Assembly: GCA_040769165.1 (NCBI GenBank)
Contig: JAXGLP010000001.1
Span: 728,197 to 792,196 of the forward strand
Direction of reading: 5' to 3'
Origin: Armatimonadota bacterium
GTDB lineage: Bacteria > Armatimonadota > UBA5829 > DSUL01
Length of the DNA: 64,000 nucleotides
Shown: positions 28,155 through 51,645 of the stretch, in pieces
How the letters are laid out: every line of letters starts with the position of its first letter
How positions within the stretch are numbered: the stretch's first letter is position 1
Made by a program: the position numbers and the translations under genes
Notes under the pieces: model-generated
The model's input: only the letters and a program-made list of their open reading frames with translations
Database searches by the model: none
What the model was told of the DNA's origin: nothing

Positions 28155-29981
28155 ATGTTTTGGAGCGACGGTACGGCCGGAGGGCTGGCAGGACACCGCG
28201 CCCCGGAAGGAACGGCGTTTGTGATTAGGGCGAACAATAAGAAGGCAATTCGTGCTGTGGCGAAACTGCTTGCGGCGATTATGGTGCTCCCGCACCTGCT
28301 GCTGGTGGGGTCGTCTTCAGTCGTAATGGCGCAGACCGAGGCAGCCACGACTAACGTCGCGGTTCTCGACTTCGCCAACGTAAGCAAGTATGGTGATTCG
28401 GTGATCTCCCGCCTCGCGACCGACGCGGTGGTCGTGGAGCTGACCAAGTCCGAGAAGTTCACCGTCGAGACACTGCAGCGCACGCGGGAGGCGATGGCCG
28501 ACCTCGATCTGCGCTACCCGCTGACGACTGCCGGTATGCTTCGGCTTGCTGAAGAACTCGCGGTCAACGCAATGGTTGTCGGCAAAGTCCGGGAGGTCAG
28601 CCTCACGGACAAGCCCCGGCAGGCGAGAGTCGAGCTTGAAGTGCAGATGCTCGACGGCGCTACCGGCGAACCGATGAACGGCGCCATTGTGCGCGGCTCG
28701 TCGAGCCCGGTCGAGGATTTTACGGGCGATGATGACGTGCTCATTATGCAGGCCGTCAACAACGCCGCTTATGTGGCTGTCCGGCGCATGATTGACTACA
28801 TCATCCCCGAAGCGACTGTCCTCAACGCCATCGGATCGGACAAGGTGCTGCTCAACCGCGGCGCTCAGGATGGCATTTCCAAAGGGATGGTTATGATCGT
28901 GACCCGGGGCGACGAAGTGATCGGCAAGATCCGCGTTCTCGACGTTACGAACAACGACTCGACCGCGGCGATCACCTCCGCCGTGCGAGGGGTCAAAGCG
29001 GAGGACAAGGCGAAGGCTGTGTTCAACGTGCCCGAGAAGGTCACGGGCGGGTATGGCGAGCCGGCGTCGAAGCTGAGCGGCGGCGTAATCGGGGCGCCGA
29101 AGAAGAAGAAGGGCATCGGCCAGGTTCTCGGCGTGCTTGCTGGTCTGGCCCTTGTTGCGATTATCGCGGGGCAGGGCAGTTCGTCCGAAGATGCCTCGTC
29201 CGGCGCGGTGATGGCGACCGCCAACGGCATCGAGCTGACGCTGGACCCGGGTTCGTTCCAGGGGACATCGAACCTGATCGAGTATCACATTTACAGGAGC
29301 GATCAGGGGCTGCCCGTGTTCTCCGTGCCGGGCTCGAGCGCGTTTGCTCTGGACACCGTGCTCGGCACCGGCGCGACGCCGCCCGAGATCACCTATCAGG
29401 AGCCCGATCCGACCAACGCTTCGGATCTCGTCGAGAAGACGGGTTCCAACCCCGGCCTTCAAGTTGGGACGCAGTACACCTATCGCGTCCGAGTGCTCTA
29501 CAGAGAACTGACGTCACTCACGGGCGGCTCGTCGGATTCGGGCACCGACGGCGACTCCGCATACCGCTACCGCCTGTCCCCGCTGACGACTATGGGGCGG
29601 GCGACGATGATCGAGCAGCTTCTGCTCGCTGATCTGGTGCAGCCGGTGATGGACGCCTCGGACGTGAGCCTGTCGAGCGTGACATTCGGCTGGCAGTCGG
29701 CGCTCGGCGCCGACCAGTACATTGTGCAGGCGTCGCTCGACCCGTCATTCTCGACGGTCGCCTTCCAGAGCGGCATCGTGACGGGATCGCCGTCGGTCGG
29801 GGGCGAGTTCCTGACATTGAGCAACCAGAATTTGTCCAGCCAGTTCTCGAGCACGGATTCCGCCACACGGATCTACTGGCGTGTGGGCGCCAGGCGAAGC
29901 AGCGACAGCGCTCCAGCCTGGAGCTACAGTCCCGAGAGCTGGTTCAGGAAGAGTGAGGGGCCGCCTCCTCCGCCATCGTAG
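28155..29981 (+). CDS. Membrane-anchored envelope protein: LpoB/CsgG-like N-domain, FlgT_C-like beta domain, KKKK-TM anchor and FN3-like C-terminal region
   Basis: Signal/anchor segment LLAAIMVLPHLLLVGSSSVVMAQ. VAVLDFANVS.. pattern as in LpoB/CsgG-fold proteins. TM segment PKKKKGIGQVLGVLAGLALVAIIAGQG. The start could instead be the GTG at 28221. Confidence 0.55.
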   Translation: MFWSDGTAGGLAGHRAPEGTAFVIRANNKKAIRAVAKLLAAIMVLPHLLLVGSSSVVMAQTEAATTNVAVLDFANVSKYGDSVISRLATDAVVVELTKSEKFTVETLQRTREAMADLDLRYPLTTAGMLRLAEELAVNAMVVGKVREVSLTDKPRQARVELEVQMLDGATGEPMNGAIVRGSSSPVEDFTGDDDVLIMQAVNNAAYVAVRRMIDYIIPEATVLNAIGSDKVLLNRGAQDGISKGMVMIVTRGDEVIGKIRVLDVTNNDSTAAITSAVRGVKAEDKAKAVFNVPEKVTGGYGEPASKLSGGVIGAPKKKKGIGQVLGVLAGLALVAIIAGQGSSSEDASSGAVMATANGIELTLDPGSFQGTSNLIEYHIYRSDQGLPVFSVPGSSAFALDTVLGTGATPPEITYQEPDPTNASDLVEKTGSNPGLQVGTQYTYRVRVLYRELTSLTGGSSDSGTDGDSAYRYRLSPLTTMGRATMIEQLLLADLVQPVMDASDVSLSSVTFGWQSALGADQYIVQASLDPSFSTVAFQSGIVTGSPSVGGEFLTLSNQNLSSQFSSTDSATRIYWRVGARRSSDSAPAWSYSPESWFRKSEGPPPPPS

Positions 29982-30132
29982 TCTGCTGCGGTGTGATTTC
30001 GGATTCGGCAGGCGCATGACCGGCTTGTTGCGCGGCGGCTTGTCCGCCGCGCAGAGCCGGTTGCGCCGCATCGGTTTGTGGTTGGCAATCGAAACGCCTT
30101 GAGGGGGCGCTTGAACTGAAGGGTTTTGAGAT

Positions 30133-32475
30133 ATGAGTTCTAAGGACATCGGGCGGGTGGTCAGAGTGGCGCGGCTGGCCGCCTTGCTGCTTGCCGTGCT
30201 GGCCGCGGCGTCCCCGGGCTTTGCCGCGGGGGGCGGGGGCATGGATCCCGGATATGTGCCGGGCGAACTCGTCATCAAGCTTCGCGCGGGTTTCGGACCC
30301 TCTGACGCGGCATCCGTCGCCGCCCTTGCCGGCGCGGTGGTGAAGAAACCCCTGCCGGTTGAGGGCTTCTACCTGCTGGCCGCGAAGGACACCGCAACCA
30401 CGGTCGTCCAGATGCGCGACGCCCTCCGCACCGACGCGCGCGTCTCCTCCAGCGACCCGAACTATCGTTGCAAGCTGTCGGCCGAGCCCAACGACCCCTA
30501 CTATGCGCAGCAGTGGAACCTCGTGCTTGTCAATATGCCCGAGGCGTGGGAGCCGATCCACATCCGCGATGCCAGCGGCATTCGCGTGGCCGTGGTGGAC
30601 GCCTGCGTGCGCACGGACCACCCCGATCTGGCCGGCCGGATCGTTGCCGGATATGACGTCGCGGACGATGATGAAGACACCAATCCGCCGGAAGAGGCGC
30701 GTCCGTGGAGTGAGCACGGAACGATGGTGGCGGGCATCATTGGGGCGGTTACCGACAACAGGATCGGAATTGCGGGAGTGTGCTGGGACGGGGTTCAGAT
30801 TGTCCCTGTCAAGGTTTACGAAGACAGCAACAATACAGTGTATGGCTCCGGCGACGACTTCGTCGCGGGCCTGGACGAAGCCCTCAAGCGCAACGCCAAC
30901 GTTGTCAACATGAGCATGGAGTTCGCCGTCACGTTCGACCTTCTTCGAGAGAAGATAGAGGAACTGGCCGACGCCGGGATTATCCTTGTCGCGGCTGCCG
31001 GCAACGGCTCAGGAAACGTCTCCTATCCGGCTGCCTATCCGGAGGTTATCTGCGTGTCGAGCGTCAACAGCGATAAGGAGATCTCCGAGTTCAGCAACCG
31101 GGGGCCCCAGGTTGATGTCGCCGCGCCGGGTGAGGACGTAACGTCGACGGGGGTAGATTCCACCGTCACGCCCATCGCCTATTACCTTACAGAGTCGGGC
31201 ACCTCGTTTGCCGCGCCGCATGTGGCGGGCGCCGCGGCCATCCTGCTTGCCAACGGGCGGCAGGCGTCTTCGGTCCTTGACGCCATTCAGGCGACCGCGC
31301 AGCAGCAGGGGACGGAGATACCCAACGACGAGTATGGCTACGGAATTCTCGACGTCGGTGCGGCTCTGCTGTATCAGTCGTTCAACGTGATCATTGACCG
31401 CCCGCAGAACGGCGACAGTCTTTCAACCACCTACCCGCCGGTTCGCATCAGCCTGAACGGAGTCGCCATCGGAACGGTGCAGGTTCTCGTGGACGGTGAG
31501 ACCGCCATTTCCGGCGGCCAGATAGCTAACGCCAAAGTCTCGCACTACAGCGCGCCCACGACAAGCGGGCAGTTGGCGTTTACCTGGCCCTTCACGACGG
31601 GCACGCACCGGATAAACGTGACGGCATCTCCCGTCTACAGCGCCACCGAGACAGTGACTGTCAGAAGCACGTTCACCGTCGCTCCCCGCACTCTGCCGCC
31701 GGGCATGTATATGTTCTCGCTGCCGTTCGCGACGGCGGGGTCGCAGACAGGGCTCGGGGACGTCCTGGCGGCCGCGGACGGGTCGCCCCTGTTTGTCTAT
31801 CGCCAGGCGCGCTGGGAACCCGAGGTTGCCGCTTACAAGCTTTACAACTATCCCGGAATCCCGAACCAGACAGGCGCGTCGTTGCAGCCTTCGAACGTGC
31901 GCGCGGGCGAGAACGCGCTTCCGGCGGAGGGCGTGGCCTCGACAACCCTGCCCAGAGGCGTCGGGTACTGGCTGGATCTCCGCCAGAGCGCTTCGCTCAT
32001 CAGCTCCACCTACGTGGATGACAGCAAGACCTATGCGATCGAACTGAAGCACGGCTGGAACCAGATCGGGAATCCCTTCCCGTTCCCGGTAGGCTGGGGT
32101 AGCGTTCTTGTGCGCTACCTCAATGATACCGTCTCCATCACGGAGGCTGTGTCGCGCGGCTGGGTCAGCTCTTCGCTCTATCGCTATGAGAGCGGCGCGT
32201 ATCGCGCGGATTCGGCGCCGAACGGGCTGCTGGAGCCGTGGAAGGGCTACTGGGTGTATGTGAAGGTTCCTCCCACCGGGGGCGCGCCGGCCGACCCGAA
32301 CGCCGCGACTGCGAAAGTGACGCTGTTTATTCCGCCCCTGCAGGGCGCTCTGGCCGGCGGCCTGCCGCTGACCCCCGCGGGCATCACCGGATCCGCCGCC
32401 TCCAATGCCGCCGGAAGCGCTTCCGGGGCGGTACGAGGCACTCTCGCGGCCGTAAAGGGCTCGTCCGGACGTTAG
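30133..32475 (+). CDS. Secreted S8 (subtilisin-like) serine peptidase with the bipartite 'GWNQIG...GYW' C-terminal module
   Basis: Signal peptide present. Catalytic triad contexts VAVVDACVRTDHPDL (D), HGTMVAGIIG (H) and GTSFAAPHVAGAAAIL (S). The C-terminal module at about 31697-32270 is shared with the next three CDS. Confidence 0.85.
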   Translation: MSSKDIGRVVRVARLAALLLAVLAAASPGFAAGGGGMDPGYVPGELVIKLRAGFGPSDAASVAALAGAVVKKPLPVEGFYLLAAKDTATTVVQMRDALRTDARVSSSDPNYRCKLSAEPNDPYYAQQWNLVLVNMPEAWEPIHIRDASGIRVAVVDACVRTDHPDLAGRIVAGYDVADDDEDTNPPEEARPWSEHGTMVAGIIGAVTDNRIGIAGVCWDGVQIVPVKVYEDSNNTVYGSGDDFVAGLDEALKRNANVVNMSMEFAVTFDLLREKIEELADAGIILVAAAGNGSGNVSYPAAYPEVICVSSVNSDKEISEFSNRGPQVDVAAPGEDVTSTGVDSTVTPIAYYLTESGTSFAAPHVAGAAAILLANGRQASSVLDAIQATAQQQGTEIPNDEYGYGILDVGAALLYQSFNVIIDRPQNGDSLSTTYPPVRISLNGVAIGTVQVLVDGETAISGGQIANAKVSHYSAPTTSGQLAFTWPFTTGTHRINVTASPVYSATETVTVRSTFTVAPRTLPPGMYMFSLPFATAGSQTGLGDVLAAADGSPLFVYRQARWEPEVAAYKLYNYPGIPNQTGASLQPSNVRAGENALPAEGVASTTLPRGVGYWLDLRQSASLISSTYVDDSKTYAIELKHGWNQIGNPFPFPVGWGSVLVRYLNDTVSITEAVSRGWVSSSLYRYESGAYRADSAPNGLLEPWKGYWVYVKVPPTGGAPADPNAATAKVTLFIPPLQGALAGGLPLTPAGITGSAASNAAGSASGAVRGTLAAVKGSSGR

Positions 32476-32626: not shown

Positions 32627-34747
32627 ATGATTCCCTGTCCGCCAAACGGAGTGCTGAGCAGAATGACCATACCAACACCCGCCCGACCTGCAGCGCGGAT
32701 CTCTTTCGGAATCGCCATGGCTGTAGCTGCGCTGCTCTGTCTGCAGGCGCTTCCGGGAATGGCGGAATACACCTCAGTCGCCGTCTCGAACCCCTACATC
32801 AGAGTGGTCGCGGGGATTTCGGGAGATGCTGAGCTTGGCGACGCCCGCGGGGGCGGTTCGCCCGAGGTCGGCGGGAAGTTCGCTGTCGGCACCTCCGGTG
32901 GCGACCCTTCCAGTTCGCTCGACAACAACTCGGCGCTGCTTGCCGGGTCTGACGGGGAATCCGGCAGCTCACTGGTGCCCTTCGGGGGCTCAACGTACAT
33001 AGTGATAGATGAGGAGACCGTCATTCTTTACGGGGGAGAGGACGGAACGTGGACGAAGCCTCCGACCCTGGACCCCGTTACCAGGGTGATCACCGATTCG
33101 TTCACTCCCGAAGAGATTCCGATTACCATAAGCCGCACCCTCAAGCCCCTGCGCGACAACGTGCTGGTCAGCTTCCAGATCACAAGCGACGACCTGGTGG
33201 CCCATACGGTGGGTCTGGTTACAGTCCTCGATACCGAGTTTGGAGCCCTCGAAGCTCTTCCGGCAACCGGTGGGCCCTTCTATACGACTCTGACCGGAAG
33301 CGTCAGCTACGAGCGGGCGTTTCTGGGGGCTGATGTCCCGGACATTATCTATGCGGCTGACAGGCTCCCCGACTACAGGATCATCTCGCAGGCGCTCTTG
33401 CGCCGCTCGGACGTGACGACTCCCGATGTGGTTCAGCTTGTCTCTCTTGCCACCGCGACGGCCGACCCGTGGGGATGCGAGGCGGATCCCTCGGTGTCGC
33501 TGCTGACGGACAGCGCGATGGTGCTGAAGTGGAACGAGAAGGCTTTGCCCGCCGGGGGCAGACTGCTTCCCGTCTCTTTTTACTTCGGGCTGGGCAATGC
33601 GTGCGCCGAGTTCAGCTATCCGGCGGTGGCGGCGCTTCAGACGCCGTTCACGCTCAACTATGTGCGGGATATTGACGATGAGACGGGGCTTGTCGAGGAC
33701 ATCGGTCACATCGTTCCGGACCCGTTTGTTGTTTACGGTTACGTTTACAACCTGAGCCCCGAGGTCAGCCTCAGCGGCGTTCAGCTTCAGCTTACGCTGC
33801 CCGACGGGCTCGAGTTTGCGACGGGTGAGTCGGCGATCCGCTCCATCGGCGCCATTGCTCCTCTGGCGGAAGGCTCGGTCTCGTGGAAGGTGCGGGCGAC
33901 TGGCCTGAAGACAGGCCCTCTGCCGGTGACCATGTCGGCCGTCGGTTCGCCGATGACAGGCAAGGCGGTCACGCGCACGGTGGACATCCCCGCGACGGAG
34001 ACCTACAGGTTCCGGGGCGGTCTGGGGCGCTGGCAGATGGTCACCATTCCGTTCGAGACCGAGAGCACCGATCTTGCGACCGCGCTCGGGCTCACCACGG
34101 CGCAGTGCCCGCAGTCGTGGCTGGACAGCCCGCTCAATTTTGACGACTACGGCGGAGTTCTGAGTTACCACGCCTTCCGCTGGAACCCGGACGGCGGAGG
34201 TTTGAGCAAGTACGACCGCGTGACGACGGTGCCGTTGCCCGGGGCTGCATTCTGGTTCCGGGGGTGCGCCGACCTGGTGCTGACAATGCAGGGCGCGACG
34301 CCGCTGCTCGAGTCTGACCTGCAGACGCGGACCATTGCGCTTCGGCCCGGATGGAACCAGATCGGAAATCCCTGGCTCTACGGCGTGGCGTGGGGGCGCT
34401 TCCGGGTTCTGAAGGATCCGGCGGTCGGGAGCGTGGAGCTTAAGGAAGCGATTCGTCAGCGCTGGCTGAACGGAACGCTCTACTGGCTCAATGCCGAAAC
34501 CAACGACTACGATTTCAGTTCCGCCCAGAGCACGGTGCTGCAGCCGTGGGTGGGTTACTGGCTGCGTGCTTACGAGCCCGTAACGCTGATCGTGCCGAAC
34601 GTCGACACCATCGGCGGAGCGGGTGTGGACATCTCCGGCGGGACCGGGGGCGGAAACAACGGTGGAGGTGGAAACGGCGGCAACGACCCGCCGCTGCCGC
34701 CGCTGCCGCCGGTGCCGTGGAGCACCACTTCGATGATTACCGACTGA
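32627..34747 (+). CDS. Secreted hypothetical protein (706 aa) ending in the shared C-terminal module plus a Gly/Asn- and Pro-rich tail
   Basis: Signal-like FGIAMAVAALLCLQALPGMAE. Module at 34021-34600 (RPGWNQIGNPW...LQPWVGYWLRAYEP). Tail is GGTGGGNNGGGGNGGNDPPLPPLPPVPW. Confidence 0.6.
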   Translation: MIPCPPNGVLSRMTIPTPARPAARISFGIAMAVAALLCLQALPGMAEYTSVAVSNPYIRVVAGISGDAELGDARGGGSPEVGGKFAVGTSGGDPSSSLDNNSALLAGSDGESGSSLVPFGGSTYIVIDEETVILYGGEDGTWTKPPTLDPVTRVITDSFTPEEIPITISRTLKPLRDNVLVSFQITSDDLVAHTVGLVTVLDTEFGALEALPATGGPFYTTLTGSVSYERAFLGADVPDIIYAADRLPDYRIISQALLRRSDVTTPDVVQLVSLATATADPWGCEADPSVSLLTDSAMVLKWNEKALPAGGRLLPVSFYFGLGNACAEFSYPAVAALQTPFTLNYVRDIDDETGLVEDIGHIVPDPFVVYGYVYNLSPEVSLSGVQLQLTLPDGLEFATGESAIRSIGAIAPLAEGSVSWKVRATGLKTGPLPVTMSAVGSPMTGKAVTRTVDIPATETYRFRGGLGRWQMVTIPFETESTDLATALGLTTAQCPQSWLDSPLNFDDYGGVLSYHAFRWNPDGGGLSKYDRVTTVPLPGAAFWFRGCADLVLTMQGATPLLESDLQTRTIALRPGWNQIGNPWLYGVAWGRFRVLKDPAVGSVELKEAIRQRWLNGTLYWLNAETNDYDFSSAQSTVLQPWVGYWLRAYEPVTLIVPNVDTIGGAGVDISGGTGGGNNGGGGNGGNDPPLPPLPPVPWSTTSMITD

Positions 34748-34878: not shown

Positions 34879-37800
34879 TTGGACAGTAGGACACCTGGAA
34901 CAGACAACCGAGGGGGGTTCGTGGGATTGAGACTGAGCTGGCGAACATCGGCCGGAAGCGTACTGCTTGCGCTCCTGGCGTTGCTGTGTACGGCTGGCGT
35001 TTCGCTGGCGCAGACTATCTCTCTCACCGACGGCAAGGTGACGCCGGCTTTCAGCGTGCGCGGGGCGGTTTACACCTACTCTGTAACCTACTCAGATGAG
35101 GACGCAACGCCGCCGATGTACGTGCGCGTCGTCATAGACGGCGAGACCTACACCATGCAGCGCTCTGCCGGCGCGCCCGACTATGCGGCGGGCGTTGTCT
35201 ACACCTACCAGCGCCGTCTCACCACCAGCGGCACACACCGCTATCATTTTGAAGCGCGCAATGCGTCGGGCTATGCGGTCTGGGATTTCCTCAGGTTCAG
35301 AGCCGGCGACGTGGAGGTGGAAGAGGAAGAAGACGAAGAGGGCAACGTCATCAGTTCCGTCGCCACAATCACCATCGCCGGCGAGGGGCCGTACCCGGAG
35401 TGTTACTCTGAGATAACCTGGGTCGGTGGCGACCGTGAGGGCATGGTGGACGCGGTCAACGCATCCGGGGATACGCTGACCATCGAGATTGAAGGCCCGT
35501 TTGAACCTGCGGCGCGGGGGGGTGACACGTTCGAACTCCCTTACTCGCGCAAATGCAGGTCGGCCTTTACCGTTGTCGGCGACTTCAGGGATCCCCTGGT
35601 CAACGACGCCCCGTTCCTGTCTGACCCGGTCGTCTCTCCGCGATGGAACTCGGATGGGTCGCAGGCGCACTGGACCTTCAAAATCACCTACAGCGACATC
35701 GAAGGAAACGGTCCGTCCTTCGTTCAGCTGTTCCTTGGCAGGGCGACGCTGATGGCGGCTAAGTCCGTGAGCGCAACCGAAACCGGCGCCGTCAGTCTGG
35801 CCTCCGCGCTGGGAAACAATCGGCTTCTGAACGTTGTGGGAGTCTATGATGACCCGGCGGGCGAAGGCGTCAACTACTATACGGGCGGCAGTTACAATCC
35901 GGAGACCGCGGTCGTCACGCTCGGCACGCCCCTGCCTGAGCCGAAGAGCGTGTACGTCACCTATCACGCCACGCCGATGACCTGGCAGGCGTACGATCTC
36001 ATCAAGGCCGATCCGCTCGCCTCAGGCTACACCGCCGGGGTGGAGTACGTCGTTCCCGCCCCGATTCCTCTCACCGGCTATAACACGCGGGCGCCGGGCC
36101 AGCCGCCTCATCTGTATTATTACTCTTTTGAGGCGGGTGACGGGCTTTACGACGACCGTAGGACTGGCTATCCGCTGTCGGTTGTGCCTGCACCGGCGAA
36201 GCAGCTTTTCGCGGCCGTTTCGGAGGTTCTCGGAACGCCAGGGGCTGAAGCGCCGTACCCGATGGTGTTCAACGGTCTCGGTGCCGGCTGGACTGAAACG
36301 ACGACCGGCCCGATATCCCGGATTGTCATGTCGGCCGCGTACGGGCCGCCGGAGGGCGCCGGGTTTGGTGTGCAGATCAGGACCATCTCAGCGTCGAACG
36401 AGGTCACCCCGGTTACGGACGCGAAAACGGATGACGCCCTGGGCCAGGTCACGCTGACAAGTGCGCCGGCGGCGGGCGATACGGTAACAGGCAGCTACGT
36501 TTTTGCCGAGCCTCTGCAGATGGCGCAATACGCCTCGCCGCCCGTCCTGGAGGATGGCACGGTCACCCCCGAGATCGGCGACCGCTCGGAAGCGTTCACC
36601 TACTGGGTTACCTACAAAGATGGGGCAGGCAGAGCTCCGGAATCGGTCACTGTGGTCATAGACGGTGTCGCGCGGGAGATGGCCCCGGCCGGGTCAGGCG
36701 CCCCGGACTACGCAAGCGGAGTTGTCTACCGCTACAGCACCATGCTCGCGCCCGAGACGGAGCATCAGTATCATTTCGAAGCGGTCAGCGCGGGCGGATA
36801 TGCCGTCTACGACGCGCTGCCGCTGGAGATCGTGTCGCTGCAGTACGACTACGCCGAGGACGGGGTTACCACAATCGCCACGTCACTGGCCCAGAACTGG
36901 TGGGACGAGGAGTTCGAAGGCAGCGAGATCACCTGGGTGACCGGACTCCGCGCCGGCGTCAGCGACCCTGTGGAGGGCGTCCGTGTCATAGACTACGACA
37001 GTATTACGCCAGCCGATGACCCGACCACGATCACCGTCACCGGCGTGCTCAACCGCGATCCGGAGAAAGAGCCGTTTCCTGGCGACCTGCTGACGCTGAA
37101 CCGGTCACGAAGCAGTCTCTGGCCCATCGCGGCAACGGGTGATATCGCGGGACCGTATGTCAACGACTCTCCCACTCTCACGAACTCGCAGGCCAGCCCG
37201 AGCACCAGCGTGCCGCTTCCGAACTCGGGGTGGACCTTCCAGACCACATACAGCGACATAGACAACAACGCGCCGCAGTTCGTGTACGCCATTCTGGGCC
37301 AGGCTACCGCCCGCTCTGCGCAGCCGTGCGCCGCTTCCAGCGTCAGCCAGGTGACTGTGGTTCCGCCCGACCCGGGCATTCCCGGCGAGGCCGCGCCGAA
37401 ACTGCTGAATGTCGTGGGAGTCTGGGACAACCCGAACGGCAGCGGAACCAACTACTACTCGGGCGGATCGTTCGACCCGGCCACGGGCGTGGTGACGCTC
37501 GGCACGAGTCTCGCTGCAGCCTCCACGGTCTACGTGACGTATCACTGCACCCCCATCGTGTGGGCGCCGGATGGCTCCGGCACGGGCCGGATAGCCCTCT
37601 CGAAGCTCGATCCGGGCGACATTGATTTCAGGGACGGCGCCATATTCACGACTTCCGCGCCTGTCTATTTCGATGGACCCGCGACCGGCAATATCGCGAA
37701 AGATCCGCCGAGGCTCAACTACTACTCTTTCGCTGCTTCAGACGGCTTCACTCGTGCAAAATATGCGCCCAACGACGCGCGCCCGTCTCCGGGCGCGTAC

Positions 37801-43062: not shown

Positions 43063-43196
43063 TAACAGAACACGGTTGGTCTGCCCGCGGTTCGCAGAGA
43101 GCCGTGGGCAGGCAGTCTTCAGGTTGCCGGCCGGGCCGGTTACGAGTCTGGAGTTACGTAAGATTGAGCGATATTCATAAGAAGAACAGAAGAGCC

Positions 43197-46100
43197 ATGA
43201 ACCTGCTGAGCCGACTGAGGGGGCAACTGGTTGCCGCGTCTGGTCTGAGAGCCGCGCTGCCGGGTCTCGCCGCCGCGCTGGCGTGCGCCGTTCTGGCAGG
43301 GCCGGTCTCGGCTCAGTCGCTGTCTGGTCCGGGCGTCACGCCGGGTAAGGCGACCACAAACTCAATCTACAACCACACCGTGACCTGGACGTGGACCCCC
43401 TCCAACAACCATTTCCCGTGGTATGCCAATGTGGTCACCCTGGGTCCCGAAGAGGTGACGCGGGTCTATTCCGACGCCGCGCGCACGCAGCTTGTCACCG
43501 ACCAGGTGGACATTAAGATACCCGTGACATGGTTCGGCGTGGACCGGTTCTACGAGATCTGGGCCGCAAACGGCGAGAACTACCCACCGACCGCTGACCG
43601 GGTCAATGCGGGTTACCGCCCGGGCGGTAACCGCGTCCGCGTGACCCTTCCGGTGGACGAAGAAGGCAATACGATCAACCCTGTCACCGCGACCGGCGAA
43701 CTGACAGCACGGGTCCGCCTTGGCGCCTTCCGCGCGGTTGAGCGCAATGTCCCGGTTGACCCCGACGGCGACGGGCAGACGTTCTTCACCCGCGGGGCGC
43801 CGATTGTCGCGGTGGGCGGCGTGTTCGACGAAAACGGCGTGGATTACTGGGAGACCCAGGACCAGTACGGCAACCCCACAGGCGGTCTGGGCTCTGTCGT
43901 CAGCGGCGCGGGCTATCCATTCCGCTGCGGCCTCAGGCTGCCATCGCCTCTTCCCAGCCGCGTCAAGACCGTGACCCTCATCTACTATGTCGGGCCGGTG
44001 ACGCTCGGCAACATCGGTGGCGGCTTCGATGATGACGACGGAAACTACGTGCCGCTGGCGGCCGCATGGGACGGCGACAAGCCGCCGCAGGACGGCTCGA
44101 GGTTTCTCCTCTCCGCGTCGAGGGGACTCAATCTGCTCAACGACCCGCGCGCTGTGCCTGGAGTAAACCGTGTGACAGGGCCGGGGGCGACCCAGCACTG
44201 GGCCACCCGTTTCATCAAGCGCGACAGCAACGGCCGTCCCGAGCGGATAACCAGCAATACCGATGACGACGTCATACGTTACGGCGCGTATATGAAGGTG
44301 GAAGGGAGCGACACTGAGCCGGCGCAGCCGGGCGACCTGGATACGGAGTCGTTCCCGTCAACACCGCCGCTCGTGGGCGCCAATGCGGCCGTCATCAGCC
44401 CCAATCTGTTCGGGCCTTACAACTACCCAAGCGTAATCCAGAAGGTGGGTCCCACCGGCTCGACTATCATCAAGGTCTCGCCTCCTGGCGGCGGATATCT
44501 CGTGGATGTTCGCGGAGTGTGGGCCGATTCGGACGCGGACGATGACGGCGTGGCCGATCTGACCGGTCCGAACTACTACAGCGGCGGCACGTTCGATACC
44601 GCGACGAACATCATTACGCTCGGCACGGCGCTTCCGTCCTCGGTTCAGAATGTCTGGGTGGACTACGCGTACTCGAGCAGGTACTACCGCTTCGGTGATG
44701 CAGGCGAGGAAGATGACACTTCCATCTGGGGCCATGACGCGCTCGGGGCGTACCCGGCGGTTGCGTTCGTCAACCGCGCCAAGGTGTACAACCCCCTCGT
44801 GGCGGAGCAGTATATCCGCGATTACTACTGGCGCATAGACCCCGTCTCGGGCGACCTGGTTGTGAACCCTTCCGCAAGGAAGATGATCAAGATCACCGAC
44901 GACGCCGCGTTCATAGATGCCAGCGGCACGACACCGGCGGACGAACGGCTCTTCACGCCCTTCAAGCAGAACGCTCCGAACGATGGCAACAGCTCTCACT
45001 CGTTCAACTTCAGGGTCCGCTACTACAACGACCAGGGCCTTGGAGCCAGCAACTGGCTGCCGAGAGCCGATGGGCGCCCGGGCGCATCTGGCGTGATGGT
45101 GTACGTGAAGTACGATGGCGAGAACGACTTCCGGCCCTACGGCATGGCCCAGGAGAACCCGGCGGTCAACAACGTTGCGCGCGATGACAACAGCTATCCG
45201 GGCGACTACGGACTGGGATATCTCCTCAGGTTTGAACCGAATTTCGGGCTGAGCGGTATTGTCGTGGCTGGCAAGAAGAACTACCCCACGCCGACGTGGA
45301 CGCTGCCCAACAACTACATCTCGATGCCCGTGGGCCGACATCAGTACTTCTTCGCCACAAGCGATGACTCGCTGAAAGACTGGGACGGCGCCCTCTGGCG
45401 GAATCCGCAGGTGAAGGTCAGGGCCGAGAATCCCCTGAACCCCTACGATGTTCCCTGGTGGACCCAGCAGAACCCGCCCGCCTACCGTCCCGGCGAGCTG
45501 CCCTTCGGCTTTGGTGACGGCTTCATAGACAGTAATATGCGCGACACCTACAACTTCGCGGATATCACAACCTACCAGCCGGGACTGCTGAATACGGGCT
45601 ACGAGTACGAAGCGACCGAGCATCCGGTCGTGCACGCGCTGCTGTCGGGCATTCCGTTCGGGCAGGATGCCCTGGGACATGTCGGTTCGGGGTTCTTCCT
45701 CGGAACGCTCTCCCCGTATGTGCCGGCCGTGAATCCGCGGCAGCCGCCCGTGCCTACCGGAATGTCTGCCGGGTTCAACCTTGCGGGTGCCTGGCAGACA
45801 ACGTCCATGGGCACTGCGTCCACCTTATTCACCTTCAAGGTGATCTGGCAGTCGTTCGACCCCGACACAAAGGTGGGCCGCCCGCCGAAGTACATCAAGG
45901 TTTTCGTCAACAACAAGTCCACCGCCAAGCCGACGCTGGACACGGACAATACGACGGTTGACCCCGCCGCGAAGTACACCGGCTACACGATGGTGCCGGT
46001 CAAGGCCAACCCGACGGCCGCCGACTACGCGGCCGGCCTCACCTATCAGTATCAGACCACGCTGCCGCCGGGCCCGCATACGTACTACTTCGAGGCCGAT

Positions 46101-49100
46101 GCCGGGTTCGGCGCCGTGCGCTTCCCGGTGCGTCCCGACGGACGCCGGCTGGACGCGCCGCCTGAGGACGGCGGCCACGGCTGGTGGGAAGATCCATATG
46201 TGCCGGGCGAGCGCGACTTTGCGGACAACAACGACTACTGCCCGGGGCCGTACGTCAACAACAAGCCGCAGCTCCTGAGCCCGAGCGTCACGCCGTCGAG
46301 CGGGCCTTACGGGACCGACTTCGTTTACAGGGTCATCTACCAGGATCCCGACGGCCAGCGGCCGGTGCAGACCGACATCATCATCGAGCTGGCTCCGGGC
46401 CAGACCGTGCGCGCCACCATGCAGCGCGTGGAGCCCGATCCGGCGAACGTGGACTACGCCGAGGGCGAGGCCTATATCTTCCGGGCGTCCTCCCTCCAGG
46501 GCTCGGTGTTCGCGCCCGGAATCAGGCGCTATCGCTTCGAGTTCCGCGACGACTGGGGCCACCCGCGCATAGATACCGATACCATCCCGGGTGAGCTCGT
46601 GAGTGCGCCGGCGGCGGTCAACAATGTCACCGCATGGTATGAGGGGCCGACTGTTTCCGCTCAGGCGCGGCCGCTGCTGACCGCCGGGGCGGTGTCGTCT
46701 TCGGACGGCTCGTCGAACCCGGCGACTCTGTGGACCTACCAGGTCACGTACACGCACGGCAACAACATCGCGCCGAGCTTCGTCAACGTCTATACAGGCG
46801 CTCAGCGCGATGCCGCCGACCCGCTGAATGCGCGCACGCTGGAACGCGCCAGGCCGTCGTCGGCCAGGAGCCTGCAAGTCGCCGTGACTCCGGTTACGTC
46901 GGTCACCGGCGTCTGGACCAACGCCGCGGGAGGTGGCGTCAACTACTACACCGGCGGCAGCTTCAACCCGAGCACCGGCGTTATCACGCTGGGCGCTGCT
47001 CTGCCCGAGCCGAGCCGCGACGTCTGGGTGACCTACTCGGCTAACCCCATCGTGTGGGATGACGGACACGGGATGGCCAGGCGCGACGCCGCCGATATCA
47101 TCTACACCGACGGCGCGGTCTATCAGTATCAGACCACGTTGCCCGGTCCGCAGCGAACGGGCGACCTGCCGATTACGTACTACTTCACGTATCAGGCGTC
47201 TGACGGGCGGCTGATGACCCATTACGATGCTGCTTCGTCGGCGTCGGCGTTCGCGCTGACCCGCCAGCCCGCCGGAGAGGGCGCCACCGATACGGGTGAG
47301 ATTCTGAGCCACGCGACGAGCCAGAACTACACGGTGTATCAAGCCGAGCACTTCCCGATCGTGGGGCCGCTGCCGACGACAGCGACGAGCGATCCGGGCG
47401 TGCTCCTGCAGCCTATCATCTACAAGAACGATCTGCAGCTTATGCCCGGTTTCACCGGAACGCTGGACTCTGCTTATGTTGAGGACAACGTCAGGGTGGA
47501 CGCCAACGGCCTGAGCGTGACCGTTGACCCGTCCGTGGTTCACATGGTGCTCGGCGTATATACCGATGCTCTCATGATGGGCACGGATTACTACGCCGGC
47601 GGCGCCGGGGGCAAGTACAACAGCGAGTCGGGCGTCATCGCTCTGGGCACGCAGCTTCCCGCGGGAGTCCGCCGCGTGTATCTGAGCTACTCCAACCGGG
47701 GCGAGTATCGCGTGGACTTCGTGAATGGCAAGGTGATCTTCACCGAGCCGAACGATGCCAGTGACGTGCTCGAGATGGAGTACTGGTGGGCCGCCAAAGG
47801 CCCCGCCAGCGTCGGCCTGAACAACCCGCCGTCGCTGTCGCTGGGGCGCTGGACGGCGCTGCCGCTGGACACCGTCCCCAACGACGGGGTGGACGGGTCG
47901 AGCACGACGGAATTCACGTTCTCGGTCGTGTATCGCGATGTGGATGGACAGGGCGGGCAGGCGCCATCGTTCGTGAACATCATCATTGATGGCGTTGTGC
48001 ACCCGATGACGCTCAGCACGAGCAATCCGGTCTACTCGACGGGCGCGACATTCAGCTACACGACGAAGCTGTCGAGCGGATCGCATCTGTACTACTTCGA
48101 GGCGTCGGACGGCACGGGCTTCGCGGCTTACGATGCTGACGGGTCGAAGAGTTCGGCCGCCGAGATCACGGGCCTGGTGCCGATCGTCGGGCCGTTTGTC
48201 AACGACCGGCCCGTTCTGTCGAGCGGCGCTGTCTCACCCAACCCCGTGGACGGCATCGCGGCAGGAAGCTCGGCGACCTACGCTGTGACGTACACCGATG
48301 CTGACGGCAACCCGCCGAACGTGGGCTACCCGAAGGTCTGGATAGACAATCCGACCGAGGTGGACTACTCGGGCAAGGTAACGGCTGTCAACGGGTCCAC
48401 GCTCACCATCGGCGGAGCGGACTGGGCGCCCGGAGTACTGACAGGCAAGCTGCTTCAGGTGACGACCGGACTGGTGATTGACCCCGAGACGCAGACGCTT
48501 GGCAGCCCGAGCGCGGCTTCCGGCAGAATCTATCAGGTGCTGGACAGTGGGCGGAACACGCTGGTTGTGACGCCCACCGAACTGCCGGGCGAGACGATTA
48601 TCCTGGGAGACACGATCTCGGTCACCGGGCTGGTGATGAGCAAGCAGAACCCGCAGCAGACGGACTACCGGCAGCCGGTTCCGTACCAACTCGTCGTTCC
48701 GTCCATGCCTGTGGGCACTCACGAATACCACTTCAGCGTTGTCTCTGCGCCGACAGTGGAGGTTGTGACGCTCAGGGCCGGGAGCGCCGAGTTCGCCGGG
48801 CCGCTCGTCACAAGCACGCCGCCAGACGGTAACGTGGCCCCGGTGCTCGCGGCCGGCTCGGTCACGCCGGACAGAGGCGTCTCGAACACCGCCTTCACGT
48901 TCGAAGTTGCCTATTCGGATGCCGATGACGATCCGCCGGGCGCGCACGACGGCGTGTTCGGATATGTCAGGCTCGTGTTCAACGACGGCAGCTATCCGGC
49001 GCAGAGAATGCAGCCCGTGGGCGCGGTCAACTCGTGGATCAGCCCCGTCGTTTACCGGGTTGTTCTCGACGACCTTCCGGCGGGAACTCATCTGTTCCAC

Positions 49101-50663
49101 TTCGAGGCGTCCGACGGATACCGCGCCGTGCGCTATCCCGAGACAACAGCCTACGACACGGCGGTTGTCATCAACTCCGCGCCCTCACTGGCGTCGGGGA
49201 CGGTCTCGCCCCCGAACGGGACTCCGGACACCGACTTCACCTGGAGCGTCGTTTACATAGACGCCGACAACCAGGCCCCTGCCTTCATGAGAGTGCTGAT
49301 TGACGGCACGGCGCACGATATGGCGAAGATTACCGCCGGGAGCAACTACGCGTCGGGCGTGACCTACCGGTGGACGCAGAACCTGCCGCTCGGCACGCAT
49401 AACTTCCTGTTCCAGGCAAGCGACGGGCAGCCGGGCGAGCCGGTTGTGCAGTCGACGCTTCAGAGCGGCCCCATCGTTCAGGATGTCGCAGGGCCGGAAC
49501 TGACGGACGGGGCGGTTTCGCCGACGCAGGGCGCTGCGAATGAGCAGTTTGTTTACAGCGTCTGGTATCGCGACCCGAACAACCGCCAGCCAGCGAGCAT
49601 CTCCGTCTTCATTGACGGAAGCGCAACCGGACGCGCTCTGTTTGCCACGGGTGTCCCGGACGCCCAGGGGCGGCAGCGTTACGAATCGGCGCCGGTGTCG
49701 CTTGGCGGCGGCTCGCACACATTCTACTTCGAGGCATCGAACGGCCTCGCGACCAGCCGCCTGGGTTCGCCGTCCAACCCGCTGGTTGGGCCGTCGGTCT
49801 CTGGCGCCAGCCTGGTGCTGAACGTGTCGAGCGACAGCTACAAGCTCGGACAGACCATCTCGGTGACGGGCTCGCTCGCTCCCGCCAGCTTGAGCCCGGC
49901 CGCGATCATCATTACCCTGAACACGCCGGACGTGAACCGGCCCGTGATTCAGAAGACCGTGACGACGTCGGCCGACGGAACGTTTGCGGCGGACGTTGCC
50001 GCGGCGGACTATACCGGCACCTGGACTATCCGGGCGGCCTGGAACGGCGGCTCCGGGTTCCCGGCGCAGGAGACGGCGCTGACGTCCATAGATGTCGGCG
50101 GCTTCGTGTTCCGCCTGAACGCGGGTGTCGTGGACATGGTGACGCTCACGCTGATTCCGTCGAGCGCCGACCCGGCGGTTGTCTTCGGCGACGCAGCGAC
50201 GGCGGCGAACGTTCAGATGGCCGAGTGGAGTCCGAACCTGGCTGAATACCTGTTCTATCCCGCCCGCGCTCCCCGCGCTGCCGCGCAACTCTGGGGTGGG
50301 GCCGGGTTCTGGGTCAAGCCGCTCGTGACGCAGGATGTCGAGGTCAGCGGGCAGTTGGCTTCCCAGACCTCGGCCTATCGGGTACCGCTGAGCGCTGGCT
50401 GGAACCAGGTCGGCTCGGTGTTCGTGAAACCGATACAGATCGGTGCTATGCAGGTCGTATATCAGGGTCAGACAAGGACGCTGGCGGATGCCGCGCGGCA
50501 GGGATGGATCCGGGACTACGCCTGGGGCTTCGACCCGGCGGCGGCAAATCCCGGGGACTACTACTTCCTGGTGATGGCCGGCACGAACCGGACGACGTTC
50601 GATCCGGGCCGGGGTTACTGGATCAGGGCGCTTGTCGACTGCGACCTGGTGCTCGTTCCGTAG
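43197..50663 (+). CDS. Giant secreted repeat protein, paralog of the preceding CDS (about 2488 aa), with the shared C-terminal module
   Basis: ATG at 43197 gives the signal peptide ...LAAALACAVLAGPVSAQ. Same three repeat classes as 34879..43062. Shared module at 50126-50660 (SAGWNQVGSVF...GRGYWIRAL). Confidence 0.75.
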   Translation: MNLLSRLRGQLVAASGLRAALPGLAAALACAVLAGPVSAQSLSGPGVTPGKATTNSIYNHTVTWTWTPSNNHFPWYANVVTLGPEEVTRVYSDAARTQLVTDQVDIKIPVTWFGVDRFYEIWAANGENYPPTADRVNAGYRPGGNRVRVTLPVDEEGNTINPVTATGELTARVRLGAFRAVERNVPVDPDGDGQTFFTRGAPIVAVGGVFDENGVDYWETQDQYGNPTGGLGSVVSGAGYPFRCGLRLPSPLPSRVKTVTLIYYVGPVTLGNIGGGFDDDDGNYVPLAAAWDGDKPPQDGSRFLLSASRGLNLLNDPRAVPGVNRVTGPGATQHWATRFIKRDSNGRPERITSNTDDDVIRYGAYMKVEGSDTEPAQPGDLDTESFPSTPPLVGANAAVISPNLFGPYNYPSVIQKVGPTGSTIIKVSPPGGGYLVDVRGVWADSDADDDGVADLTGPNYYSGGTFDTATNIITLGTALPSSVQNVWVDYAYSSRYYRFGDAGEEDDTSIWGHDALGAYPAVAFVNRAKVYNPLVAEQYIRDYYWRIDPVSGDLVVNPSARKMIKITDDAAFIDASGTTPADERLFTPFKQNAPNDGNSSHSFNFRVRYYNDQGLGASNWLPRADGRPGASGVMVYVKYDGENDFRPYGMAQENPAVNNVARDDNSYPGDYGLGYLLRFEPNFGLSGIVVAGKKNYPTPTWTLPNNYISMPVGRHQYFFATSDDSLKDWDGALWRNPQVKVRAENPLNPYDVPWWTQQNPPAYRPGELPFGFGDGFIDSNMRDTYNFADITTYQPGLLNTGYEYEATEHPVVHALLSGIPFGQDALGHVGSGFFLGTLSPYVPAVNPRQPPVPTGMSAGFNLAGAWQTTSMGTASTLFTFKVIWQSFDPDTKVGRPPKYIKVFVNNKSTAKPTLDTDNTTVDPAAKYTGYTMVPVKANPTAADYAAGLTYQYQTTLPPGPHTYYFEADAGFGAVRFPVRPDGRRLDAPPEDGGHGWWEDPYVPGERDFADNNDYCPGPYVNNKPQLLSPSVTPSSGPYGTDFVYRVIYQDPDGQRPVQTDIIIELAPGQTVRATMQRVEPDPANVDYAEGEAYIFRASSLQGSVFAPGIRRYRFEFRDDWGHPRIDTDTIPGELVSAPAAVNNVTAWYEGPTVSAQARPLLTAGAVSSSDGSSNPATLWTYQVTYTHGNNIAPSFVNVYTGAQRDAADPLNARTLERARPSSARSLQVAVTPVTSVTGVWTNAAGGGVNYYTGGSFNPSTGVITLGAALPEPSRDVWVTYSANPIVWDDGHGMARRDAADIIYTDGAVYQYQTTLPGPQRTGDLPITYYFTYQASDGRLMTHYDAASSASAFALTRQPAGEGATDTGEILSHATSQNYTVYQAEHFPIVGPLPTTATSDPGVLLQPIIYKNDLQLMPGFTGTLDSAYVEDNVRVDANGLSVTVDPSVVHMVLGVYTDALMMGTDYYAGGAGGKYNSESGVIALGTQLPAGVRRVYLSYSNRGEYRVDFVNGKVIFTEPNDASDVLEMEYWWAAKGPASVGLNNPPSLSLGRWTALPLDTVPNDGVDGSSTTEFTFSVVYRDVDGQGGQAPSFVNIIIDGVVHPMTLSTSNPVYSTGATFSYTTKLSSGSHLYYFEASDGTGFAAYDADGSKSSAAEITGLVPIVGPFVNDRPVLSSGAVSPNPVDGIAAGSSATYAVTYTDADGNPPNVGYPKVWIDNPTEVDYSGKVTAVNGSTLTIGGADWAPGVLTGKLLQVTTGLVIDPETQTLGSPSAASGRIYQVLDSGRNTLVVTPTELPGETIILGDTISVTGLVMSKQNPQQTDYRQPVPYQLVVPSMPVGTHEYHFSVVSAPTVEVVTLRAGSAEFAGPLVTSTPPDGNVAPVLAAGSVTPDRGVSNTAFTFEVAYSDADDDPPGAHDGVFGYVRLVFNDGSYPAQRMQPVGAVNSWISPVVYRVVLDDLPAGTHLFHFEASDGYRAVRYPETTAYDTAVVINSAPSLASGTVSPPNGTPDTDFTWSVVYIDADNQAPAFMRVLIDGTAHDMAKITAGSNYASGVTYRWTQNLPLGTHNFLFQASDGQPGEPVVQSTLQSGPIVQDVAGPELTDGAVSPTQGAANEQFVYSVWYRDPNNRQPASISVFIDGSATGRALFATGVPDAQGRQRYESAPVSLGGGSHTFYFEASNGLATSRLGSPSNPLVGPSVSGASLVLNVSSDSYKLGQTISVTGSLAPASLSPAAIIITLNTPDVNRPVIQKTVTTSADGTFAADVAAADYTGTWTIRAAWNGGSGFPAQETALTSIDVGGFVFRLNAGVVDMVTLTLIPSSADPAVVFGDAATAANVQMAEWSPNLAEYLFYPARAPRAAAQLWGGAGFWVKPLVTQDVEVSGQLASQTSAYRVPLSAGWNQVGSVFVKPIQIGAMQVVYQGQTRTLADAARQGWIRDYAWGFDPAAANPGDYYFLVMAGTNRTTFDPGRGYWIRALVDCDLVLVP

Positions 50664-50691: not shown

Positions 50692-50766
50692 GAAGAGACA
50701 GATGCTCTTCCACCGTGGGACGGCTCGCTGGTGGGGACGATAAGCTGATAGTGCAGATGAGGAAAC

Positions 50767-51645
50767 TTGATGAGATGTAACGTTTTGCCGCGCATCGCGC
50801 TTCTGGTGGCGGGCGCGTATTTGATCAATCTTGCAGCGCCAGCCGCTGCGCAGACCGCCGCGCCTGCGCCGGAGGCCGCCAAGGCTCCGGCCGAGGCGAA
50901 GGCCGCCCCCGGCGCTGCCGAGGCGGGGTACACCGGCCCGCGCATCAGCCTGCTGGTGTTCCCGTTCGATACTTCGGAAGTGCAGGGCGCGCCTGAGGGG
51001 CTGGGCGAGAGCCTGGCCAAGATGTTCAAGGACGGCACCCTGCGAAGCACCATCTTCACCGGCGTGACGTTCAACCCGAAGTTCCCGGTGTTGCGCCGGG
51101 CGCTCGATGAGACGACACTTTCGGCTGCCGACCTGAAGGAGCCGTTCACGCTCGATCCGCGCGACACCGAGCGCGCCGCCAAGATCGGCCGCGTTATGGA
51201 TATGCCGGTGGCTCTGGGAGCGCTCCAGGACTTCAACTACGACCGCGAGAAGAAAGAAGCGACGGTCACGATCACGGCCGAGATTATCAACAGCCAGACC
51301 GGGCGCATCGACAAGACCCTTGTCGCAAGCGGCAAGACTCCGGCCTCGATGGTCGTCGGCACCGAAACGGACTATCTCCTGCGGGCGGCGGAACTGGCCG
51401 GGCAGGATCTGCTCGCGAAGATTCCGGGCGTGGAGCCGACGCTTGTCGTGAAGCCGGGTGAGAACGGCAAGACTGCGACGGATGAGGGCGAGAAGCCCGT
51501 GGTTGTTGAGCCCGTCAAGAAGAAGAGCAACTCCGGCCTGTGGGCGGCGCTTGCCGTGCTGGCTGGCATCATCATCGCTGGAAGCGGCGGTGGCGGTGGT
51601 GGGGGCGGAACCACCACGGTCGGGCCACCGGCTCCTCCTTACTAG
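50767..51645 (+). CDS. Membrane-anchored LpoB/CsgG-like envelope protein, short paralog of CDS 28155..29981
   Basis: Signal peptide ...[25 protein letters not shown] pattern. C-terminal anchor [31 protein letters not shown] parallels KKKKGIGQVLGVLAGLALVAIIAGQG. Confidence 0.55.

Follow-up and report, generated by a model that had tools for sequence, protein, structure and literature searches.

The DNA analyzed here, referred to as the window, is a 64,000-nt stretch of an Armatimonadota genome (GenBank assembly GCA_040769165.1, contig JAXGLP010000001.1, positions 728,197–792,196) with a GC content of about 64%. It contains six co-directional open reading frames (ORFs) on the plus strand, g1 to g6, which are set between coaE and uvrB and separated by gaps of 40–151 nt (Table 1). 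An initial annotation, made from the sequence alone, had described them as a surface gene cluster in which two LpoB/CsgG-like anchors bracket an S8 subtilase and three large cargo-like proteins. All six ORFs are present as claimed, and the housekeeping genes named on either side were also found, with polA and rpsA as additional upstream neighbors of the locus. A signal peptide had been claimed for every product, and all six N-termini, judged by eye from the sequence, fit the Sec pattern of a positive n-region, a hydrophobic core, and an AxA-type site. No Pfam or NCBIfam match above threshold was obtained for g1, g3, g4, g5, or g6, and no Pfam or NCBIfam model for LPXTG, PEP-CTERM, GlyGly-CTERM, or PGF-CTERM-type signals matched any of the six proteins.

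The subtilase claim for g2 held. The protein matches the full Pfam model of Peptidase_S8 (PF00082; 6.1e-48, positions 2–288 of 288), its triad motifs are intact (VAVVDAC, HGTMVAG, and GTSFAAP), and its propeptide is Fervidolysin_NPro-like (2e-5). The best NCBIfam matches of the catalytic domain were mycosin (TIGR03921; 171.6 bits, cut-off 278.75) and dentilisin PrtP (87.9 bits, cut-off 300). A mycosin of the type VII secretion system (T7SS) was rejected as the identity of g2 since the score lies below the equivalog cut-off and no ESX genes are present.

The two giant proteins are related to each other (BLASTP 6e-83). When fragments were compared with the whole protein by BLAST, g4 was found to consist of three super-repeats of about 520 aa, tandem immunoglobulin (Ig)-like repeats of about 110 aa (aa 1600–2470), and a terminal module, and g5 of repeats of about 110 aa followed by a terminal module. 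A CarboxypepD_reg match in g4 was sub-threshold. The N-terminal region of g3 had no Pfam, NCBIfam, or PDB sequence match, and only four proteins were returned as its homologs. Profile searches with g3 orthologs gave only FlgD_ig/FlgD matches on the C-terminal domain (CTD) of the orthologs and scattered Ig-type matches such as NPCBM_assoc. An AlphaFold2 (AF2) model of this region, built from a shallow alignment, was unreliable (predicted local distance difference test, pLDDT, 55), and a fold search with it returned only generic beta-sandwich matches (TM≤0.19). The g3 protein ends in a poly-Pro tail, and the ends of g1 and g6 are also proline-rich.

Table 1. Coordinates of the locus, its domains, and neighboring features in the window.
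Feature	Position	Strand	Length	Remarks
g1, long candidate anchor protein	28155..29981	+	608 aa	alternative start GTG at 28221
g1 LpoB-like alpha/beta domain	28326-28802
g1 small MreC/FlgT_C-like beta-barrel	about 28839-29054
g1 Lys-rich patch and hydrophobic helix	29100-29171
g1 PPPPPS tail	29955-29978			C-terminal part; preceded by two fn3-like domains
g2, secreted subtilase	30133..32475	+	780 aa	signal peptide; propeptide; S8 domain; Ig-like spacer; module; low-complexity tail
g2 S8 catalytic domain	30574-31344			Asp, His, Ser motifs at 30586, 30715, 31198
g2 module	31639-32301
g3, conserved core protein	32627..34747	+	706 aa	signal peptide; N-terminal beta-rich region, ~420 aa; Ig-like domain; module; Gly-rich and poly-Pro tail
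g3 module	34025-34603
g3 poly-Pro tail	34690-34720			PPLPPLPPVPW
g4, giant secreted repeat protein	34879..43062	+	2727 aa
g4 module	42436-43056
g5, giant secreted repeat protein	43104..50663	+	2519 aa from first GTG	likely start ATG at 43197, giving 2488 aa
g5 module	49995-50657
g6, short g1 paralog	50767..51645	+	292 aa	signal peptide and Ala/Pro-rich linker before the alpha/beta domain
g6 LpoB-like alpha/beta domain	50938-51411
g6 Lys-rich patch and hydrophobic helix	51517-51582			followed by a Gly run
g6 PPAPPY end	51622-51642
Possible sigma-70-type promoter	27944..27972	+		in the 235-nt coaE-g1 gap; weak
GH106 alpha-L-rhamnosidase	17669-20965
tRNA-Leu(CAA)	21047-21129	-
S49 peptidase	21293-22369
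GH14/GH42-like protein	56036-58663
ORF with ~190-aa repeats	58365-61556	+	1063 aa

The shared C-terminal module

A C-terminal module common to the four central proteins had been proposed, and it was confirmed by BLASTP and by alignment. The copies in g2 and g3 match those in g4 and g5 at E-values of 1e-7 to 1e-14, and a hidden Markov model (HMM) of the module recovers g2 at 1e-41, g4 at 7e-59, and g5 at 1e-60. The module is all-beta, about 190–200 aa long, and made up of two half-repeats. The first runs from G.xM(I/F)S.P to G.G(Y/F)W, and the second contains GWNQ(I/V)G, then EA..GW, then L.P..GYW. GWNQ.G and GYW are invariant in the alignment, and Trp, Tyr, Asn, and Gln are frequent at the conserved positions. 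Both g4 and g5 stop within a few residues of the module, which means that the folded module is the end of the protein, and g2 and g3 continue past it with low-complexity tails of 45–70 aa.

The module has no counterpart in the resources searched. Among 18 members no consistent Pfam family was found at E-values up to 1, there was no NCBIfam counterpart, and the best match of the sequence profile in the PDB was only at E 0.48. An AF2 model of the g4 module was all-beta (pLDDT 85, predicted TM-score 0.79), and Foldseek found nothing below E 0.2 for it in the PDB and nothing below E 0.047 in the viral models of BFVD. In the literature, no paper containing the module motifs was found.

An exhaustive profile search showed how common the module is. 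It was matched by 21,635 cluster representatives at E≤1e-3 and by 7,391 at E≤1e-10, in several phyla. Its passengers include Ig, PQQ propeller, FG-GAP, PKD, sedolisin, fn3, CARDB, NIDO, and cadherin-like domains, and it lies almost always at or near the C-terminus. A C-terminal position on such diverse passengers suggests that the module behaves like a promiscuous targeting or anchoring domain.

The g1 and g6 proteins

The g1 and g6 proteins had been described as paralogs, and no similarity between them was found by BLAST. When the two families were compared as profiles with hhalign, they aligned with a probability of 99.7% (E 6e-26) over the signal peptide, the alpha/beta domain, the Lys-rich patch and helix, and fn3. 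An HMM of the g1 LpoB domain also matches g6 family members directly. Because the family profiles align, the paralog claim is right. In the window, g6 has lost the fn3 domain that most orthologs carry after the helix, and its end reads GGGGGGGG...PPAPPY. The PPPPPS tail of g1 is nearly invariant in the g1 family.

Of the description of both as LpoB/CsgG-like anchors, the LpoB part is supported at the family level. Out of 22 g1 family members, Pfam matched LpoB in 16 (best 4.4e-9), the MreC barrel in 18, CsgG in 6 (best 1e-4), and FlgT_C in 5. The NCBIfam LpoB model TIGR02722 matched 12 of these 22 homologs (best 3e-9) and NCBIfam CsgG matched none. The window's own g1 and g6 fall below every LpoB threshold, and their LpoB-likeness is seen at the family level. 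In a profile search of the PDB, LpoB came first for g1 at E 0.11, and no CsgG structure appeared up to E 10. A lipobox Cys is missing from the cleavage site of both g1 (...VVMAQ↓TEAA) and g6 (...AAAQ↓TAAP). CsgG was rejected as the identity of g1, given the absence of a lipobox, of any match in the window's g1, and of NCBIfam or PDB matches to CsgG, with the 6 Pfam matches all at E≥1e-4. A true LpoB lipoprotein does not fit either, since g1 has no lipobox and has an extra barrel, a helix, and fn3 domains.

The LpoB-like fold is used by envelope-anchored scaffold and regulator proteins. At the family level, the N-terminal domain of g1 and g6 resembles that of the periplasmic LpoB/FlgT/FlgO-type scaffolds, and g1 adds the MreC/FlgT_C-like barrel. 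Unlike those scaffolds, they are not lipoproteins and they have a later helix, fn3 domains, and poly-Pro tails. No link of g1 or g6 to PBP1B or flagellar genes was seen.

Gene order and the protease slot in Armatimonadota

A scan for the module in one genome per GTDB species gave 79 loci, which were annotated with HMMs for the module, S8, g1, g3, and g6; their taxon labels are those recorded for the genomes. More than 20 Armatimonadota assemblies show the gene order coaE - (cargo) - g1 - protease+module - g3-like+module - (giant cargo) - g6 - uvrB. The g1 gene is found in this arrangement in 24 loci plus the window, usually within the coaE/uvrB frame, and loci with the conserved order are recorded as Armatimonadota, Fimbriimonadales, Armatimonadia, WS1, and Fervidibacter. 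On distant g1 contigs (29–36% identity), independent gene calls gave rpsA - coaE - g1 - S8 - ~700-aa protein - cargo - uvrB, where the cargo was a giant protein of 3,500–4,100 aa or smaller. Members of the g6 family, detected with an iterated HMM, occur in 18 loci, either directly after the g3-like gene or after inserted cargo. A lack of conservation in related genomes had been set beforehand as an outcome that would speak against the proposed system, and instead the order was found to be kept phylum-wide.

The conserved core is four genes: g1, the protease with module, g3 with module, and g6. The window has these in the same order. Variable cargo with the module is added to this core, either upstream of g1 or between g3 and g6. 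A g3-like gene with module directly follows the protease gene in 23 loci, which identifies g3 as a conserved core component. Therefore, of the three proteins initially viewed as cargo-like, g4 and g5 fit that role and g3 does not.

In 20 of 23 loci, the gene after g1 encodes an S8 peptidase that preserves the His and Ser motifs; these counts include two loci each recovered twice (L080/L081 and L082/L083). Pfam confirmed S8 in this slot for L007, L029, and L070. In L009 (7765-10887), the slot is occupied by a Peptidase_C39_2 protein (3.5e-8, above threshold), and in the Fervidibacter locus L052 (7751-11110) by an M6-like protein with HELGH, a weak match of 20 bits against a cut-off of 22. The fact that a module-bearing peptidase is kept while its catalytic class changes argues that selection is for a protease at that address.

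Fervidibacter sacchari, a cultivated member of Armatimonadota, has a diderm envelope with a 55-nm periplasm (PMC11535203). In a diderm phylum, giant exported proteins need an envelope address. We tentatively favor, at slightly less than an even chance, the reading that the locus encodes a conserved system by which surface proteins are docked to the envelope and processed, and this system is grouped with the C-terminal-domain sorting or attachment systems that have a dedicated protease. All six products would be exported by Sec. The module of about 190 aa would act as a shared address through which the protease, g3, and the giant Ig-repeat cargo reach one envelope site, which would most likely be a scaffold formed by the LpoB-like g1/g6 pair, or else an adjacent envelope glycan. 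The protease, co-localized in this way, could then mature or release the cargo.

Several points weigh against this reading. It ties the gene content, homologies, domain order, synteny, and cross-phylum associations to a localization, a docking partner, proteolytic processing, and an outer-membrane route that we infer. No outer-membrane translocator is visible in the locus, which leaves the surface route unexplained for the lineage without a CTD. The predicted topology of g1 and g6 is odd, as a cleavable signal peptide and a later helix would place fn3 in the cytoplasm. In both proteins the Lys patch lies before the hydrophobic helix, apparently on the wrong side, which conflicts with a simple type I topology. 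One possibility would be a helix in the outer membrane by analogy to Omp-alpha of Thermotoga. The protease is not always intact or present: the slot of L002 (7883-11116) holds a homolog of the L052 protein without HExxH, and L064 has no protease gene in the locus. Also, most of the 21,635 module proteins are not beside a protease or LpoB-like gene within their 10-kb flanks. The module could be a general structural or glycan-binding unit, and since no relative of it has been solved or annotated, any binding activity can only be guessed. Surface display and an assembly system, both put forward in the initial annotation, stay hypothetical for the locus, and the surface-layer idea gained no specific support.

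The module-mid-CTD cassette and alternative explanations

In most loci the module is not terminal, and the protein continues past it with a "mid" domain of about 170 aa and then a domain of about 80 aa, the CTD. Of 96 tails that extend at least 60 aa beyond the module, 95 group into one BLAST cluster, and most are 236–313 aa long. In the Fibrobacterota-Chlorobiota-Bacteroidota (FCB) group, the last domain reaches the type-A threshold of the type IX secretion system (T9SS) sorting domain (TIGR04183, up to 44.9 bits with a cut-off of 23) and also matches Por_Secre_tail/FlgD_ig. In Armatimonadota, it matches FlgD_ig, and the CTDs tested (L007 and L015) had no TIGR04183 match at E≤1e-3. An HMM built from FCB sequences only matched 44 of 45 Armatimonadota CTDs (median E 9e-13) and all 45 mid domains (median E 2e-23), which shows that the whole cassette is common to T9SS-type cargo of FCB and to Armatimonadota. 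In most other Armatimonadota, the orthologs of g2, g3, and the cargo end in module-mid-CTD. The window differs. Its proteins have no T9SS sorting domain by Pfam or NCBIfam, and the mid and CTD HMM finds nothing in it. Likewise, L001/L047, L004, L008, L080, L082, L084, and L085 keep the locus without any mid or CTD. In the favored reading, the module-mid-CTD arrangement, which persists in most Armatimonadota and in FCB bacteria, is the ancestral form, and the window's lineage has lost the mid and CTD. The initial annotation had recognized a logic like that of T9SS with different components. The difference in components is only partly true, and the analogy is closer than the sequence alone could reveal, because most orthologs carry a CTD homologous to T9SS type A.

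A different ending was found among the 143 best representatives of the module family. Of these, 115 end in the module, and 42 of the 115 are module-mid-module proteins (P0018–P0059, e.g., P0018 aa 369-915), many from unclassified bacteria, in which a second module takes the place of the CTD. In P0013, the module is followed directly by a CTD. One member, P0050 from Cloacimonadota, has five copies of the module.

A more specific proposal, which we hold to be doubtful, is that the module itself is the sorting or anchoring signal of a T9SS-independent pathway that places large proteins onto the outer envelope of diderm Terrabacteria. Here g1 and g6 would form an envelope receptor or anchor, possibly with the helix across the outer membrane, the module-bearing protease would be a dedicated processing enzyme with a sortase-like or release role, and the T9SS-type CTD would be an optional add-on to an older cassette.

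It is also conceivable, though we consider it unlikely, that the locus is a T9SS-type cargo island. The module proteins would then be cargo or accessory proteins of a type IX-like machine encoded elsewhere in the genome, with the module and mid as a mere structural stalk before the CTD. Instead of being its own system, the locus would be a conserved cargo set, analogous to PorU (protease with CTD) and PorZ (non-catalytic, with CTD). This explanation accounts well for the protease, g3-like protein, and cargo all ending in module-mid-CTD in most Armatimonadota loci, for the FCB-only HMM recognizing nearly every mid and CTD there, and for FCB members passing the TIGR04183 threshold. However, lineages such as that of the window keep the whole locus without mid or CTD, so the conserved function does not need the CTD. 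The FlgD_ig rather than TIGR04183 matches of L007 and L015 and the many proteins with a second module replacing the CTD also speak against it. According to a published report (PMC4737851), the sorting domain occurs only in the FCB superphylum, and no paper linking T9SS to Armatimonadota was found.

The docking and processing reading also draws on associations in other phyla. In L062 and L055, recorded as Rhodothermota relatives or unclassified, a module-mid-CTD gene lies in an operon-like row with genes for two paralogous tetratricopeptide repeat (TPR)+CsgG/LpoB-like proteins and an outer-membrane beta-barrel. The L062 row (1597-10475) also has a Ser/Thr kinase with PEGA domains and is all on one strand; L055 (1308-12252) has the same type of row without the kinase. 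In L050 (8012-17932), all four partner genes including the kinase are present on the opposite strand from the module gene, and L060 (2-2928) keeps only the module gene and the barrel gene. A relationship between the N-terminal region of g3 and this barrel gene of the FCB operons was considered and rejected (hhalign probability 1%). In 13 mostly Cytophagales-type loci (L022 at 11129-12298, L031, L034, L036, L044, L045, L046, L057, L058, L071, L072, L074, and L078), a gene for a caspase-like Peptidase_C14 lies immediately downstream of the module-mid-CTD gene; its product, about 400 aa long, has a signal peptide but lacks a CTD. Together, the Rhodothermota-type rows and the C14 loci tie the module, in more than one phylum, to LpoB/CsgG-like pairs and dedicated peptidases.

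These associations bear on whether there is a dedicated system at all. The secreted protease and adhesin-like proteins might merely share a beta-sandwich, such as a carbohydrate-binding unit, next to LpoB-like proteins with a separate housekeeping role in the envelope, for instance in the control of peptidoglycan synthesis. The module is very common on many types of enzymes and adhesins, its conserved Trp, Tyr, Asn, and Gln positions resemble those of many glycan-binding sites, the locus lies among housekeeping genes, and stand-alone module proteins occur far from any g1-like gene (L087, L013, L015, and L021). We consider this explanation quite improbable, since chance does not explain an order of g1 - protease - g3-like - g6 that holds down to 29% identity, or a protease slot that is retained despite changing catalytic class. 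In addition, CsgG/LpoB-like pairs are beside module proteins again in a distant phylum, and g1 and g6 are without the lipoprotein signal that defines true LpoB. The initial annotation had held that a generic, scattered domain unlinked to S8 would count against its proposal. The module is indeed very widespread and most copies are not linked to S8, but it is independently linked to peptidases and CsgG/LpoB-like pairs elsewhere.

A curli-like amyloid system, in which g1 would be a CsgG-type outer-membrane channel secreting amyloid subunits (the large proteins with transthyretin-like CarboxypepD_reg domains) and the subtilase would process them, is very unlikely. It would fit the CsgG matches in Pfam, the CarboxypepD_reg domains of the L010 cargo (3e-32), and the sub-threshold match in g4, but LpoB dominates over CsgG in Pfam, NCBIfam, and the PDB search, g1 has no lipobox, no curlin repeat, CsgE, or CsgF was found in the six proteins by Pfam or NCBIfam, and the cargo consists of folded multi-domain proteins of 2,500–4,000 aa instead of small unfolded subunits. 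The g1 alpha/beta domain, at about 155 aa, also looks too short for the two transmembrane hairpins of CsgG. The amyloid idea has a precedent. Eloe-Fadrosh et al. (2016) showed a "six-gene conserved cluster" in three hot-spring Armatimonadetes, annotated as a large WD40/FlgD_ig/CarboxypepD_reg protein, "CsgG", subtilisin, a FlgD_ig protein, and two hypotheticals, and proposed the secretion of a functional amyloid (PMC4737851, Supplementary Figure 10). One source in that study, GxsBSed, is also the source of locus L056. Since it appears in a supplementary figure from 2016, the locus is not an unnoticed object. On the sequence comparisons above, and with no curlin, CsgE, or CsgF genes, the CsgG assignment is not supported. 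This paper was the only prior mention of the cluster found, and no later follow-up was found. We found no description of how the locus is conserved at one position throughout the phylum, of the module as a very large family absent from the catalogs, or of the module-mid-CTD cassette shared with T9SS cargo. The same is true of the g1/g6 paralogy, the interchangeable protease slot, and the links in other phyla to LpoB/CsgG-like pairs and peptidases.

Among known systems, the locus can be compared with the attachment complex of T9SS, in which both the protease PorU and the non-catalytic PorZ carry a CTD and PorV and PorQ form a paralogous pair of membrane partners. Here too, diverse secreted proteins have a common C-terminal address that a protease and a non-catalytic protein also carry, there are two paralogous membrane-associated partners, and most Armatimonadota orthologs have a CTD. 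This parallel is striking but formal. The protease of the locus is S8 (or C39- or M6-like) and not a C25-type PorU, the partners are LpoB-like with a helix and not FadL-like beta-barrels, and the window proteins have no CTD. No T9SS core gene was present among the six proteins and the scanned flanks, which begin about 17 kb into the window and contain housekeeping or glycoside-hydrolase genes, and no literature report of such genes in the phylum was found. LapA-LapG offers another analogy, in which a terminal module keeps a giant adhesin at the outer membrane and a dedicated exported protease governs it. The likeness is limited to the retention and release logic for a giant Ig-repeat adhesin. 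The locus has no RTX repeats, type I secretion system (T1SS) genes, or LapG (C93)/LapD homologs, and its putative retention module is C-terminal and carried by the protease itself.

Sortase, exosortase, rhombosortase, and archaeosortase systems also pair a processing enzyme with many proteins sharing a C-terminal signal, but the signal in the locus would be a ~190-aa folded domain instead of a short motif with a transmembrane segment and basic tail, and the enzyme is a soluble subtilase. The T7SS mycosins and dentilisin PrtP are likewise envelope-associated subtilases in loci for secretion or surface complexes, whereas g2 is far below their family cut-offs and has no ESX or Prc partners. Curli and holdfast-anchor loci (CsgG/HfaB) share with the locus a CsgG/LpoB-superfamily envelope protein beside secreted proteins of surface structures. 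Unlike them, the locus has no lipobox, full CsgG domain, or CsgA/B/E/F, and its cargo consists of giant folded repeats.

Its presence at one housekeeping position across the phylum makes the locus a strong candidate for the machinery by which the little-studied diderm Armatimonadota export and retain very large surface proteins. The module is among the larger domain families missing from Pfam, NCBIfam, and the PDB, and thousands of giant "hypothetical" proteins, many T9SS cargo proteins of Bacteroidota and related phyla among them, would be better annotated once it is defined. The cassette, which FCB T9SS cargo and a Terrabacteria phylum have in common, is relevant to where type IX-like sorting arose and how far it truly extends across phyla. 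Also, the module is repeatedly paired with peptidases of four different classes and with CsgG/LpoB-like pairs, which provides concrete hypotheses that are testable in the cultivated Fervidibacter sacchari, Fimbriimonas ginsengisoli, and Chthonomonas calidirosea.

The promoter that had been called consensus-like lies upstream of g1. Its elements are present (TTGAAG-17-TAATAT, with TG upstream of the -10), but only 8 of 12 consensus positions match as read from the sequence, and the site was not reported by a consensus scan. No convincing intrinsic terminator was found between g1 and g6. In L084 (2573-4298), two small proteins with weak PEP-CTERM matches (PF07589) are encoded upstream of the locus at a distance of about 6 kb, and exosortase-type sorting may thus also operate in at least some of these genomes. 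Near the locus, the window has genes for a GH106 alpha-L-rhamnosidase (2.8e-215), a GH14/GH42-like protein, and an S49 peptidase. The tRNA-Leu was the sole RNA gene from tRNA and Rfam scans of the window and is unrelated to the locus. Downstream, in a stretch of lower GC content (0.59–0.62), an ORF of 1063 aa without the module begins with what resembles a signal peptide and repeats a ~190-aa unit about five times; the motif of this unit is GCYLL.N..L.GA.AVYLWYD...N.L.LRND.NTAW.GG.APG.

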